Shown: piece after piece, positions 1,893 to 8,199 of the stretch
Layout of the letters: each line of letters starts with the position of its first letter
Position numbering within the stretch: the first letter of the stretch is position 1
Assembly (NCBI RefSeq): GCF_024700885.2
Contig: NZ_CP117016.1
Reading direction: 5' to 3' (one strand)
DNA length: 64,000 nt
From: Escherichia coli
GTDB taxonomy: Bacteria > Pseudomonadota > Gammaproteobacteria > Enterobacterales > Enterobacteriaceae
Position numbers and translations under genes: made by a program
The notes under the pieces: generated by a model
The model's input: the letters and a program-made list of their open reading frames with translations, nothing else
What the model was told of the DNA's origin: nothing
Databases searched by the model: none

Positions 1893-3587
1893 TTAATTAC
1901 CAGCGACTTGTTTTGGGTTAAGTTTGGTAATATGGCCACTTTCAGTTCCTGCTGCAGGGTCGATGACCACATTAATAATGGTCGGTTTGCGCGACTGAAT
2001 ACCGGTAGTTAAAGCATGACGAAGTTCATCTGTCGTGGTGACGTTATAACCAACGCCACGAAACGCATCCATTAATTTGTCATACCTTGCATGGTGCAAT
2101 AGATCTGTTGGTGATGGTGCACCAGCGCCACTGAGATCAACACCGTCTCCTCTGTAGATGCCGCCATTATTAAAAATAACGATCGTCACCGGCAGGTTAT
2201 ATCGACAAATCGTTTCAATCTCCATCCCACTGAAACCAAAAGCACTATCACCTTCAATGGCGACAACCGGAGAACCAGAGGTCACGCTAGCACCGATGGC
2301 ATAGCCCATACCGATGCCCATGACACCCCAGGTGCCACAATCCAGACGACGACGTGGTTTATACATATCAATAATATTTCGTGCATTATCCAAGGTATTT
2401 GCCCCTTCATTAACTAAATAAATATCCTGGTTCTCACGCAATACATCGCGCACAGCACTCAATGCATTAAAGTAATTTAATGGTTGGGTATCTGTACTTA
2501 ACTTTTCATGCATTTTTTGCGCATTTTGCTGCTTGTGGATATTTAAAATATCGCGCCACACCAGCGGAGTCGTAAATGTGTTTTGTTTCAATTCTGCCAG
2601 CATACCTTGCATACTGGATGCAATATCGCCAACGACTGGCACAGCAATGGGGCGGTTGCTGTCAATTTCCTGCGGTTCAATATCCAGTTGAATAAACTGT
2701 GTATCTGCCGCCCATCCTTTTTTACCGTGCGCCAGTAACCAATTCAGTCGTGCACCAACAAGCATGACAACGTCAGCATTTGCCAGGGCAAACGAACGCG
2801 CAGCTGCCGCAGAAAGTGGATGCGTATCTTCCAGGATCCCTTTCGCCATAGACATTGGCAGGAATGGAATCTGGGCACTTTCAATAAATTCACGAAGCTG
2901 TTCATCAGCTTGTGAATACGCCGCGCCTTTGCCAAGGATAACTAATGGACGTTCAGCTTTTGCTAAAAGCGAAATTGCGCTAGTGACTGACTTCGGGCAT
3001 GGCAATAATGCTGGCGACGGATTTTCAACTTTAACAATCGTGGTTAACGCTTCGTCTTTTTCCATCGTCGCGGCCAGGACATTTGCTGGTAAATCAAGAT
3101 AAACTCCGCCAGGGCGACCCGATACTGAGACCCGGATAGCGCGTGCCAATGCAATGCCAAGATCCTGCGGCTGATTAACGCGGAATGCTGCTTTGGCATA
3201 CGGTTTTGCCGCATTCATTTGGTCCAGCTCTTCATAATCACCTTGCTGTAGGTCGACGATCGCGCGGTCGCTGGAGCCGCTAATCATGATCATCGGAAAA
3301 CCATTTACCGTTGCGTTGGCCAATGCGGTCAAACCATTGAGGAATCCTGGCGCAGACACTGTCAGGCAGATCCCCGGTTTTTGGGTAAGAAAACCGCTTG
3401 CCGCAGCGGCATAGCCTGCCGACTGCTCATGACGAAAACCAATATAACGAATGCCTTCCGCCTGGGCATGGCGCGCCATATCCGTCACAGGAATACCTAC
3501 AACACCATAAATAGTGTCAATATCATTCTGTTTTAATGCTTCAACGATGATATGCATACCATCTGTCATTTGAAGTTGATCTGACAT
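1893..3587 (-). CDS. oxc: Oxalyl-CoA decarboxylase (thiamine-diphosphate dependent)
   Basis: 564-aa ORF with TPP-enzyme fold motifs (GVVGIPV near the N-terminus, [15 protein letters not shown] near the C-terminus); adjacent to frc. Confidence 0.9.
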
Positions 3588-3640: not shown

Positions 3641-4891
3641 TCAGATGGCGTGGTTTTGCTTCATTGCAGCAATTTCATCGTCGCTATAACCCAGCTCCTG
3701 CAATACAGCAGCGGTATGTTCACCTAATAGCGGCGCAGCTTTAATATCCGGCGTAAAGGCAGAGAATTTCATTGGACAACCAACTGTCAGATATTTTCCA
3801 CGCAACGGTTGTTCCACTTCGACGACACTGCCACTTTGGCGCAAAGAGGGATCAAGTGAAATTTCTTTCATACTTAAAACCGGTGCGCAAGGAATATCAA
3901 ACTGAGTCAAATAGGCCACCGCTTCATGTTTATCAATAGTGACAGTGTATTTTTCGATTTCAGCAAAAATATCGAAAATATGTGGCTGTCGGGCATGGGC
4001 TGTACTGTATGCCGGATCGGTAATCCAATCTGGTTTGCCGATGGCTTTACAGGTGTTTTCCCAGTTTTGCTCCTGAATAGTGAAATAAATATAGGCGTTA
4101 GGATCGGTTTCCCAGCCTTTACATTTCAGGATCCAGCCAGGCTGACCGCCACCACCCGCATTACCTCCGCGGGGAACTGCATCACCAAATGTGCCATTCG
4201 GATACTGCGGGTATTCTTCCAGATAACCCAATTTATCGAGACGCTGCTGGTCGCGTAATTTCACGCGGCAAAGGTTCAATACGGCATCCTGCATTGACAT
4301 GGTAACTCGTTGACCACGCCCCGTTTTTTCGCGATGCAGCAAAGCAGCAAGTAAACCGATCAGCAAATGCATTCCGGTGTTGCTGTCACCCAACGCTGCA
4401 GCGCTTACCAGCGGCGGGCCGTCCCAAAAACCTGTAGTGGATGCCGCACCACCCGCTGCCTGAGCAACGTTTTCATAGGCTTTTACATTCACATAAGGCG
4501 AACACTCATCAAACCCTTTGATCGAACCAAAAATCAAACGTGGATTGATTTCTTGAATATGCTCCCAGGTGAAGCCCATGTGATCAATGGCCCCTGGATG
4601 AAAGTTCTCGACTAAGATATCAGCTTCGCGGATCAGCTTTTCCATTACCTCTTTGCCTTCCGCTGTTTTGGTATTTAATTCAATAGAACGTTTGTTACTG
4701 TTAAGCATGGTGAAGTAAAGCGCATCGATATCAGGAATATCTCGCAGCTGGTGACGCGTTACGTCACCAACGCCGGGACGTTCAATTTTAATGACGTCAG
4801 CGCCAAACCAGGCCAGCATTTGAGTACAAGATGGGCCAGATTGCACACCGGTGAAATCGAGAACTTTAATTCCTTGAAGTGGAGTTGACAT
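3641..4891 (-). CDS. frc: Formyl-CoA:oxalate CoA-transferase
   Basis: 416-aa ORF, N-terminus [43 protein letters not shown] typical of family III CoA-transferases. Confidence 0.9.
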
Positions 4892-5142
4892 AGCAATACC
4901 TATTAGTTAATTAAATATATGTTAATTTAGCGTTTATTTAAGGCATAACGCCCTCTATAAATAATCCGCAAAATATCGTCGTAGCTGCACTCGATATTTT
5001 TAAATTCCTGTATCAAGTGCTGAAAATCATTTCATCGCCACTTCCAATTCCTTTCTGCATGGTAAGTAGTGAGGACGAAAAGAAGAATATGATAAATATT
5101 GGTTCGCGGTAATCAGAGAGAGCCGCGACATTTGTGATGTTA

Positions 5143-5160
5143 TTCTTACAACTGTAAGAA
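5143..5160. promoter_or_regulatory. Candidate EvgA box: perfect 18-bp palindrome TTCTTACA-AC-TGTAAGAA, about 250 bp upstream of frc
   Basis: Exact 8-N2-8 inverted repeat read directly; matches the EvgA box consensus TTCPyTACA-N2-TGTAPuGAA as I recall it. Confidence 0.5.
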
Positions 5161-5403
5161 GCGCCGGTGATTTACAAGTAAGGGTATGATTACGCCTTTT
5201 AAAGCGTACCATAAAACATAACATAATAAATGATTTGTGATGACACGGGATTATTGCGGTTTACTTTGAGGAAGATAAAATGCGAGTTTATAGAACCGCG
5301 AGCGCCAAATAATTTTATGACCACAACCTGTCGTATTGTGGTCATAAAAAATTGTCGGCTGGAGGGAGTTAAATCCTTTACCTCAATATACTGCCTGTCA
5401 GCG

Positions 5404-6036
5404 TTAGTTCACAAACAGTGCTTCGCTATCGACGATGATTCCATCTTCCGCACCTTTAAGCGCCAGGTTTGCCTCGTAGTATTGCTTTTTATCAAGCAGT
5501 TTCTGCGCATCAGCAAGTGCATTACGAGTCTGTTTGAGCGGCATCAGATATTGGTTTTCCATTACGCCAACACCGGCCAGGCGCAGCTCTTCCATTGCGC
5601 CCTTTTTATCCCCTTTCGCCATTTTTTCGTTGGCAATTTTTATCGCGGCTTCTTTTTCGGGTGTCGCTACATAACTCTCAGAAATTCCGACAGATGCATT
5701 AATGACAATATATTGGTCATCATTGACATTGGTCTTTTTACCTGGCTTAGCGAACTTTGCCCATTCGGTACTGTCATCTGACAACAAAGCTGAAGCTTCA
5801 TTGGTCAGTTCTTTTGCCTTTTCCGGATCGCCATGAAACAGAGCCAGGCGCGCTACCTGCACGTCACGCATCGCATATAAACCTTGTTCAGAGATACGCT
5901 CTGCTGCTGCCGTTTTCTGGGTTTGCTGAACTTGCTGAGTTTGCTGTTGTGCCGCTACCGGTGCATTATCAGCCGCCCATACAGTTGAAGATGCCAGAAT
6001 TGCTGTGACCATCGTAGCCATAATTAAACGTTTCAT
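5404..6036 (-). CDS. yfdX: YfdX-family periplasmic protein (signal peptide, EvgA-regulon member)
   Basis: 210-aa ORF with N-terminal signal peptide [21 protein letters not shown]; position between frc and ypdI. Confidence 0.85.
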
Positions 6037-6133
6037 ACTTACCTCATTCTTTAACAGTTTTAGAAAACGCCGCCATCATATTGGGTGAGCATGAAATGAG
6101 AAATCAGAGAGCAACGGTCATTTTGAAAGGGTT

Positions 6134-6151
6134 ATCTTACAGTTGTAGTTA
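6134..6151. promoter_or_regulatory. Weak EvgA-box-like inverted repeat upstream of yfdX
   Basis: aTCTTACA-gt-TGTAGtta, about 13 of 16 positions match the consensus. Confidence 0.3.
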
Positions 6152-6171
6152 TTATCGCAAGAAGTATTTTA

Positions 6172-6189
6172 GTCTTACAATTGTAGGAA
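6172..6189. promoter_or_regulatory. EvgA-box-like inverted repeat upstream of yfdX
   Basis: gTCTTACA-at-TGTAGGAA, 15 of 16 positions match the consensus; about 140 bp upstream of the yfdX start. Confidence 0.45.
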
Positions 6190-6331
6190 TATGCTTCCTG
6201 TCGCAGAGAACTATTCTTATATACCACAAAGAGATGTCATTTATTATATCGATGTAAATACTGATTAATTAAATGTAAATACAGCCATAACATCGTAGGT
6301 TCTCAGTGAGCCATTCTCAGGATAACTTTCT

Positions 6332-6607
6332 ATGAAAGTAAACTTAATGCTTTTTAGCTTATTTTTATTGGTCTCTATTATGGCATGCAATGTTTTTGCA
6401 TTTTCCATTTCTGGTGGTGGAAGTGAGACGAGCTATAAAGAGACAGAAAAAACGTCAGTGATGACGACAACTCATTCTACAAAACTTCAGCCATCACAGG
6501 CGATTTTGTTTAAGATGAGAGAAGATGCGCTACCATTAAATCTCACAGAAGACATCACGCCCCCTTTTCCGACAAAGGCGAATTATCTTATTCATCCTGT
6601 GCGATAG
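6332..6607 (+). CDS. ypdI: Small putative lipoprotein
   Basis: 91-aa ORF with signal peptide and lipobox-like SIMAC motif; position matches ypdI. Confidence 0.65.
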   Translation: MKVNLMLFSLFLLVSIMACNVFAFSISGGGSETSYKETEKTSVMTTTHSTKLQPSQAILFKMREDALPLNLTEDITPPFPTKANYLIHPVR

Positions 6608-6683
6608 CGTCTGTCACATGGCAGGTGAACAATCATATCTGTTGATGATGTGAGCACCTGCCCAAATGATCCATCCTGAACTA

Positions 6684-6926
6684 CTACCGCCTGCCATACC
6701 CCACCATAAAGCGAATCATCAAGCCACAAGCCGGGGCAAGAAACATAAATATCCCCGTCACTAGTTCATTACCGCCTGTTAACCACATGGTGAAGTAGTA
6801 AATGAGTGCAGCGAGGATCACCATGCCGAAGAAAGAAGAGACCGCCGAGACCACGTTCAGTACCTGACCGATGTATCCGCTTACGCAGACAATACACAGG
6901 GCGAGAAACATCCATAAATAAATCAT
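6684..6926 (-). CDS. yfdY: Small inner-membrane protein (DUF2545-like)
   Basis: 80-aa ORF with two hydrophobic helices; position matches yfdY. Confidence 0.65.
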   Translation of the reverse strand: MIYLWMFLALCIVCVSGYIGQVLNVVSAVSSFFGMVILAALIYYFTMWLTGGNELVTGIFMFLAPACGLMIRFMVGYGRR

Positions 6927-7278
6927 AGCTCAACCTCCTGCCGCGCTAAAAAACCTGTAACTTCAGTCACTTTAATAGTAAGACAATCCTTAACCTCTGG
7001 CAATTTTTGCTAAGCATCAATGAAAACAGCATGTTAAATGCAAGACTGTTGCGTACGGAAAAATATTTACTTTGCACGATTAATAATCAGTAGCTGAAAG
7101 CAGTCAGCCAGTGATAAAGTACAGATACCGCATTCATGCTCCTCGTGGTTATGTCCTGACTAGTCTTTACACTCTTTACAGGAACCATTGTCGTACATGA
7201 TGGCCCAACCAATTGAGTGTACCGCTGTCGACATGGAATCTTCTGCGATACAACAATTCGTATCTACAGAAGGTAACT

Positions 7279-8199
7279 ATGTTTCCACAATGCAAATTTT
7301 CCCGCGAGTTTCTACATCCTCGCTACTGGCTCACATGGTTTGGGCTTGGTGTACTCTGGCTTTGGGTACAGCTTCCTTATCCTGTTCTCTGCTTTCTCGG
7401 CACGCGTATTGGCGCAATAGCGCGACCATTCCTGAAACGGCGTGAATCTATCGCCCGTAAAAACCTGGAACTTTGTTTCCCACAGCATTCTGCGGAAGAA
7501 CGCGAGAAGATGATTGCCGAAAACTTTCGTTCACTCGGCATGGCGCTGGTAGAAACCGGCATGGCGTGGTTCTGGCCCGACAGTCGCGTACGTAAATGGT
7601 TTGATGTTGAAGGGTTGGATAACCTTAAACGCGCACAAATGCAAAATCGCGGCGTAATGGTTGTCGGCGTCCATTTTATGTCGCTGGAACTGGGCGGCCG
7701 CGTGATGGGACTGTGCCAACCAATGATGGCTACCTATCGTCCACATAATAATCAGCTGATGGAATGGGTGCAGACCCGTGGGCGCATGCGCTCTAACAAA
7801 GCGATGATCGGCAGAAATAATCTGCGCGGCATTGTCGGTGCACTGAAGAAAGGTGAAGCGGTATGGTTTGCTCCCGATCAGGATTATGGTCGTAAAGGCA
7901 GCTCCTTCGCGCCGTTCTTTGCGGTGGAAAATGTCGCCACAACCAATGGTACGTATGTCCTTTCACGTCTCTCTGGCGCAGCCATGTTAACCGTAACGAT
8001 GGTAAGAAAAGCGGATTACAGCGGATATCGTTTGTACATCACCCCAGAGATGGAAGGCTACCCGGCAGATGAAAATCAAGCCGCTGCCTATATGAACAAG
8101 ATTATCGAAAAAGAGATCATGCGCGCACCGGAGCAGTACCTCTGGATCCACCGTCGCTTTAAAACGCGCCCGGTGGGAGAATCGTCGCTATACATTTAA
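7279..8199 (+). CDS. lpxP: Lipid A palmitoleoyl acyltransferase (cold-induced late acyltransferase)
   Basis: LpxL/LpxP-family ORF; six-frame ORF starts at 7213 but the ATG at 7279 (MFPQCKFSREF...) gives the expected 306 aa. Confidence 0.85.
   Translation: MFPQCKFSREFLHPRYWLTWFGLGVLWLWVQLPYPVLCFLGTRIGAIARPFLKRRESIARKNLELCFPQHSAEEREKMIAENFRSLGMALVETGMAWFWPDSRVRKWFDVEGLDNLKRAQMQNRGVMVVGVHFMSLELGGRVMGLCQPMMATYRPHNNQLMEWVQTRGRMRSNKAMIGRNNLRGIVGALKKGEAVWFAPDQDYGRKGSSFAPFFAVENVATTNGTYVLSRLSGAAMLTVTMVRKADYSGYRLYITPEMEGYPADENQAAAYMNKIIEKEIMRAPEQYLWIHRRFKTRPVGESSLYI

Follow-up and report, generated by a model that had tools for sequence, protein, structure and literature searches.

Paired EvgA boxes upstream of Escherichia coli yfdX: geometry, conservation, and variation in copy number

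The closest characterised homologue of EvgA is BvgA, of Bordetella. Promoters activated by BvgA, e.g., those of fha and ptx, are acted upon by phosphorylated dimers of a NarL/FixJ-type protein, and do so by way of inverted, heptad-type repeats which are found well upstream of a promoter having a poor -35 element, often with several sites per promoter. In these regards they are like the yfdX promoter of Escherichia coli. BvgA dimers bind cooperatively, at about 22-bp intervals, and do so down to the -35. The yfdX promoter is different in this respect, as it instead has a 38-bp interval between its two good sites, and beyond these nothing recognisable as a site extends to the -35.

The other targets of EvgA, i.e., frc, safA-ydeO, ydeP, yegR, and emrKY/evgAS, share with yfdX an inverted repeat of the form TTCYTACA-N2-TGTARGAA, with core CYTACA, that is positioned 100-270 bp upstream of the start codon. 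These genes also, as with yfdX, are acid induced, and have in common a regulator and genomic neighbourhood. Only yfdX, however, has two such boxes (no more than three mismatches, 38 bp apart), with the other EvgA promoters possessing one each. Indeed, in some strains the yfdX box unit is amplified to three or four copies, versus the single box of other EvgA promoters. In Klebsiella pneumoniae, yfdX (encoding a periplasmic acid-stress chaperone) is controlled by a NarL/FixJ regulator as well, but there the regulator is RcsB and the proposed element is KMRGAWTMWYCTGS (PMC6394985), and a Klebsiella-like yfdX locus is without EvgA-type boxes.

For E. coli, EvgA is stated to bind inverted repeats upstream of both yfdX and yfdWUVE (PMC3720670, legend to Fig. 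2, there citing Masuda & Church 2003), YfdX expression is given as increasing about 1000-fold upon EvgA overproduction (PMC6339873), and PyfdX is described as being directly activated by EvgA~P. yfdX, that is, already is an established, direct EvgA target. The original prediction, which had assigned yfdX to the EvgA acid-resistance regulon on the strength of two repeats found upstream of it, therefore is correct but ordinary, as it restates published knowledge. Support for that assignment comes from the literature, from motif statistics, from a weight matrix, from a phylogenetic footprint, and from co-occurrence with evgS.

The window, meaning here the whole stretch of E. coli DNA that was analysed, is 64,000 nucleotides in length. 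Its region from 5300 to 6700 is 100% identical to the chromosome of E. coli MLI114 and is found in 5,420 of 5,426 complete E. coli genomes. Gene names and coordinates are those of the RefSeq annotation of the MLI114 record, as expressed in window coordinates. Found on the minus strand are yfdV (880-1824), oxc (1893-3587), frc (3641-4891), the regulated gene, yfdX (5404-6036; 210 amino acids, YfdX family, ATG at 6036), and yfdY (6684-6926), with ypdI (6332-6607) instead on the plus strand. At the left edge of the window is yfdE, with evgS/evgA directly past yfdE and outside of the window. Both boxes lie within the 295-bp divergent spacer separating yfdX and ypdI.

The 18-bp EvgA consensus, which we take to be TTCYTACA-N2-TGTARGAA (TTCYTACANNTGTARGAA) after Masuda & Church 2003 and Itou et al. 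2009, has 16 specified positions. The distal box, 6172-6189, reads GTCTTACA-AT-TGTAGGAA (or TTCCTACA-AT-TGTAAGAC in yfdX orientation), and has one mismatch to this consensus, so that the predicted match at 15 of 16 positions holds. The proximal box, 6134-6151, reads ATCTTACA-GT-TGTAGTTA (in yfdX orientation, TAACTACA-AC-TGTAAGAT), and has three mismatches, i.e., it matches at 13 of 16. Separating the two is a 20-bp linker, 6152-6171, with box and linker together forming a 38-bp unit. The boxes jointly occupy the interval 98-153 bp upstream of the yfdX ATG, with the distal box at 136-153 bp and the proximal box at 98-115 bp, and an earlier description of them as 100-150 bp upstream of yfdX accordingly was right.

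Within these boxes are core units of CTTACA-N2-TGTAG, at 6136-6148 (CTTACAGTTGTAG) and 6174-6186 (CTTACAATTGTAG), where the spacer, RT, is 2 bp in length. Two units had been predicted for exactly this location but as separated by N4, and it is only the location which stands, since CTTACA-N4-TGTAG has no matches in the window even with one mismatch permitted. CTTACA-N2-TGTAG, by contrast, has exactly two matches across the 64 kb, versus 0.01 expected from dinucleotide shuffles. The distance from box centre to box centre is 38 bp, or 3.6 helical turns, such that two dimers would not be found on the same face of the DNA, and simple cooperative binding consequently is not obvious.

Window sites with no more than three mismatches to the consensus number three, versus 0.53 expected, and no shuffle reached three. 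The third of these sites, at 5143-5160, is upstream of frc and has no mismatches. This perfect EvgA box, TTCTTACAACTGTAAGAA, is found in the yfdX-frc spacer and is the top-scoring site of the whole window, representing a separate promoter of the same regulon.

This consensus was checked by scanning 46 kb of K-12 DNA around genes reported as EvgA-regulated, again allowing up to three mismatches. Boxes were found 112-129 bp upstream of the safA start codon (one mismatch), 244-261 bp upstream of that of ydeP (two mismatches), 107-124 bp upstream of that of yegR (one mismatch), within the emrK/evgA spacer (two mismatches), and 252-269 bp upstream of the frc start codon (no mismatches), along with the two yfdX boxes, these at 136-153 and 98-115 bp upstream (one and three mismatches, respectively). 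The sole other site of this quality in the scan was a three-mismatch match within ydeO.

A palindromic weight matrix, as trained on four EvgA-promoter sites, all outside of the window, was used to score 63,983 window positions. As these training sites were picked using the consensus, the result depends on that consensus, though not on the window. The frc box ranks first (23.5 bits), the distal yfdX box second (20.3 bits), and the proximal box third (14.9 bits), with the next-best score in the window being 12.0 bits. The best score in shuffled windows averages 13.4 bits, with a maximum of 20.0. The distal box is highly significant by itself, while the proximal box, taken alone, is only modestly above what chance supplies in 64 kb. 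What makes the latter significant is its conservation, together with its 38-bp distance from the distal box.

A promoter scan supplies a candidate sigma-70 core promoter for yfdX at 6102..6075 of the minus strand, consisting of a -35 of TTCTCA (6102..6097), a 16-bp spacer, and a -10 of TATGAT (6080..6075). Overlapping or abutting this weak -35 is a block, CTCTGATTT (6101-6109, minus strand; about -41 to -33), that is invariant among E. coli, Yersinia, and Buttiauxella and which may be a contact region for RNA polymerase or activator. Roggiani et al. employed a PyfdX-yfp fragment which responds to pH and EvgS and whose end is described as being the start site mapped by Itou 2009. The primers for that reporter map uniquely to the window, to 6065-6085 of the plus strand and 6593-6611 of the minus strand, so that the functional fragment spans 6065-6611, with both boxes inside it and its end 10 nt past TATGAT. 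That end point places the yfdX start site at about 6066-6069, with the G at 6068 the likely start, as based on the reporter primer in combination with the -10 match. Given such a start, the boxes would be centred at about -74.5 (proximal) and about -112.5 (distal). Upstream, class-I-like positions such as these, ahead of a poor -35, are typical of an activator-dependent promoter. In strains whose EvgS is responsive, the PyfdX reporter itself is reported to be 8- to 60-fold up at pH 5.7.

A minus-strand promoter match of TTGTAA-18-GATAAT, which is found inside of the boxes, was rejected, having no support from the reporter end point, and probably is seen because an EvgA half-site resembles a -35. 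A structured RNA is likewise unsupported, as a scan of 4800-7300 identified no Rfam family, and the boxes are upstream of the inferred start site.

The yfdX promoter is a standard reporter for EvgS/EvgA, and correct placement of its boxes is useful annotation rather than new biology. What is added in that regard is corrected geometry, i.e., the N2 spacer, the 38-bp spacing, and centres that are found near -74.5 and -112.5.

The yfdX/ypdI spacer varies to an unusual degree, and in 1,135 genomes it is 90-95% identical to the window. Twelve E. coli strains, as sampled across that identity range, were aligned. Among the specified positions of the two boxes, 2 of 32 columns are variable, versus 3 of 4 columns for the 2-bp box centres, 8 of 20 for the linker between boxes, 39 of 142 on the ypdI side (6190-6331), and 7 of 69 between box and start site (6065-6133). 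Variation at specified box positions is limited to 6150 and 6172, each an outermost position and each already off consensus. Distal half-sites, that is, are invariant save for outermost position 6172, with a variable 2-bp centre, and the proximal core, CTACA-N2-TGTAAGA, likewise is invariant, with both of its centre bases variable. Comparing box positions with the centre, linker, and upstream columns, Fisher p = 0.002, a value that is indicative only, given the phylogenetic relatedness of the strains and their selection for diversity. This pattern of variation in half-sites versus centres is what would be expected as the footprint of a dimer-binding inverted repeat. The analysis also adds a clean phylogenetic footprint, one showing selection on both boxes. 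The ypdI gene, like the adjoining half of the spacer (6190-6331), is unusually variable, with 12 of its first 60 coding columns differing among these same strains.

Beyond E. coli, yfdX loci were taken from GTDB representatives and from metagenome or genome contigs, and then were scanned using the weight matrix, the sample being a small one of nine taxa. Wherever an evgS-type kinase gene adjoins, i.e., in E. coli, Yersinia, Buttiauxella, and Dryocola, there is a box whose centre precedes the yfdX ATG by 105-113 bp. No box of at least 9 bits is found upstream of yfdX in Salmonella, Hafnia, and Edwardsiella, whose flanks do not carry evgAS, and the same is true of the Klebsiella-like yfdX-frc locus, also without evgAS in its flanks. 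The E. coli locus has two boxes along with adjacent evgS/evgA. In the island seen in Yersinia alsatica and Yersinia vastinensis, the order is yfdX-frc-oxc-yfdV-yfdE followed by evgS on the opposite strand, and the boxes present are a proximal one, a degenerate distal one that keeps the 38-bp spacing, and a strong one at frc. In Buttiauxella species gadB-hdeB-hdeD is followed by divergent yfdX, with the gene for an EvgS-like kinase coming next, on the opposite strand, and the box reads TTCTGACA-TA-TGTAAGAC. In Dryocola the order is hdeD, divergent yfdX, and then evgS-evgA on the opposite strand, with a box again present.

Alignment across these genera runs without a gap from the proximal box through the CTCTGATTT block, which is invariant, to the -10 (TAT..TG), and box-to-promoter geometry therefore is conserved. 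Of the pair, it is the proximal box which appears, from such alignment, to be the ancient one. YfdX as encoded by the Yersinia island is 83-84% identical to that of E. coli, and the island adjoins an integrase, IS1, and arsBC. The block looks like a horizontally acquired island that has retained the frc EvgA box (one mismatch) along with a weakened proximal yfdX box. In both Buttiauxella and Dryocola, where yfdX is convergent with an evgS/evgA-like pair, a TCTGACA-N2-TGTAAGA box is found in the shared hdeD/yfdX spacer, and this single EvgA-type site may serve the hde genes in addition to yfdX.

The preferred reading, to which we assign a probability of approximately 0.88, is that both repeats are sites for EvgA~P dimers and together make up the upstream activating region of a yfdX promoter whose -35 is weak. 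EvgS/EvgA would here be serving as an acid-sensing phosphorelay, encoded adjacent to the yfdX locus, with EvgA a NarL/FixJ-type response regulator. At mildly acidic pH, EvgS would phosphorylate EvgA, and EvgA~P then would fill both the distal box (at about -112.5), presumably of high affinity, and the weaker proximal box (at about -74.5). From these upstream, class-I-like sites, EvgA~P would recruit or stabilise RNA polymerase, with yfdX turned on as a result. Motifs, their excess, their conservation, co-occurrence with evgS, and promoter geometry are contributions of the present analysis to this reading, while EvgA dependence and direct activation are contributions of the literature; the contributions of individual boxes and the contact with RNA polymerase are what we infer. 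As EvgA boxes, the repeats combine a consensus match, residence in the promoter of an EvgA-dependent gene, conserved half-sites with a free centre, and co-occurrence with evgAS.

A possible though doubtful elaboration, one which is compatible with dual EvgA~P sites serving yfdX, is a division of labour in which the proximal box is responsible for yfdX, and the distal box serves divergent ypdI, either mainly or in addition. In that case the distal box would act as a class-II-like site, located about 43.5 bp ahead of a ypdI start which would itself follow a candidate -10 of TATTCT (6212-6217). The distal box indeed is nearly midway between the two ATGs, 144 bp from that of yfdX and 152 bp from that of ypdI; in a transcriptome obtained with glutathione, which is acidifying, ypdI is 5.5-fold up together with yfdX (9.8-fold), yegR, ydeO, and emrK (PMC5811628); and in Buttiauxella, which is without ypdI, only the equivalent of the proximal box is well conserved. 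The promoter scan nevertheless calls no plus-strand promoter at this location, that transcriptome was the only co-expression data set found, no start-site data came to light for ypdI, and the Yersinia vastinensis island, also without ypdI, still has a degenerate distal box. Were it instead only the distal box that functions, then the proximal, 13-of-16 box would serve no purpose, being a copy that is either decayed or fortuitous. Its three mismatches, and a score of 14.9 bits that is inside the range of best shuffle scores (mean 13.4, maximum 20), are as such a box should look. We nonetheless consider this unlikely, as the proximal core is invariant in the 12 E. coli strains even as its centre bases and the adjacent linker vary, and its position, about 105-113 bp from the ATG and gap-free to the -10, is kept in Yersinia, Buttiauxella, and Dryocola.

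The repeats might, alternatively, be sites not for EvgA but for another NarL/FixJ regulator such as RcsB. The half-sites TAAGA/TCTTA resemble the halves of an RcsB box, and in K. pneumoniae RcsB gives gel shifts on PyfdX (hdeD-yfdX intergenic DNA), with rcsB deletion lowering promoter activity (PMC6394985). The RcsB element KMRGAWTMWYCTGS, however, has but one two-mismatch match here, at 6184-6197 and over the distal box, and 64 such matches in the window versus 41 expected, while TAAGA-N4-TCTTA has 16 window matches versus 15 expected; neither element, that is, is convincingly above background in this region. The half-site arrangement, CTTACA-N2-TGTAAG, is instead that of other EvgA-regulated promoters, and yfdX induction in E. 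coli is attributed by the literature to EvgA, which together leave a regulator other than EvgA highly improbable. Least probable, to the point of being negligible, is that the boxes are short palindromes which have arisen by chance. In favour of chance are the AT-richness of intergenic DNA and a proximal box that by itself is near to chance level, but against it are two exact matches to 11 specified bases versus 0.01 expected, the footprint along with conservation across genera, and presence of the motif at every other EvgA-regulated promoter examined.

Two boxes are not universal in E. coli. In 3 of 40 sampled genomes the spacer is 333 bp rather than 295 bp, and in strain 00-3076 a 38-bp tandem duplication has given rise to a third, hybrid box, ACTACA-AT-TGTAAGAC. 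A 38-nt query placed over the hybrid junction, which genomes with two boxes cannot seed, identifies three-box alleles in 414 of 5,426 complete genomes (~7.6%). One strain, IBS28, has four boxes (L025, 198-324), with hybrid boxes of the same sequence and a strict 38-bp period. The 38-bp box unit behaves, that is, as a small variable-number tandem repeat, with two boxes present in most strains. Ancient duplication as origin of the two-box state itself finds no evidence, as the units have nothing in common beyond the box. The residual novelty of this locus is its copy-number polymorphism along with the possibility that the distal box works in both directions, neither of which is described in the literature searched. 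Copy number could contribute to strain differences in EvgA-dependent output, differences which so far have been attributed to EvgS variation, and the observation of such copy-number variation among natural isolates is the third addition of the analysis. More speculatively, and with the balance of likelihood rather against it, the copy number of the 38-bp repeat, in combination with any use that ypdI may make of the distal box, could adjust the gain of the acid response mediated by EvgA from one lineage to another. Elsewhere in the same spacer, 50-80 bp upstream of the ypdI start codon, is a direct repeat, ATGTAAATAC, at 6253-6261 and again at 6274-6282, i.e., 21 bp apart, and this repeat is mostly conserved among the 12 E. 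coli strains.
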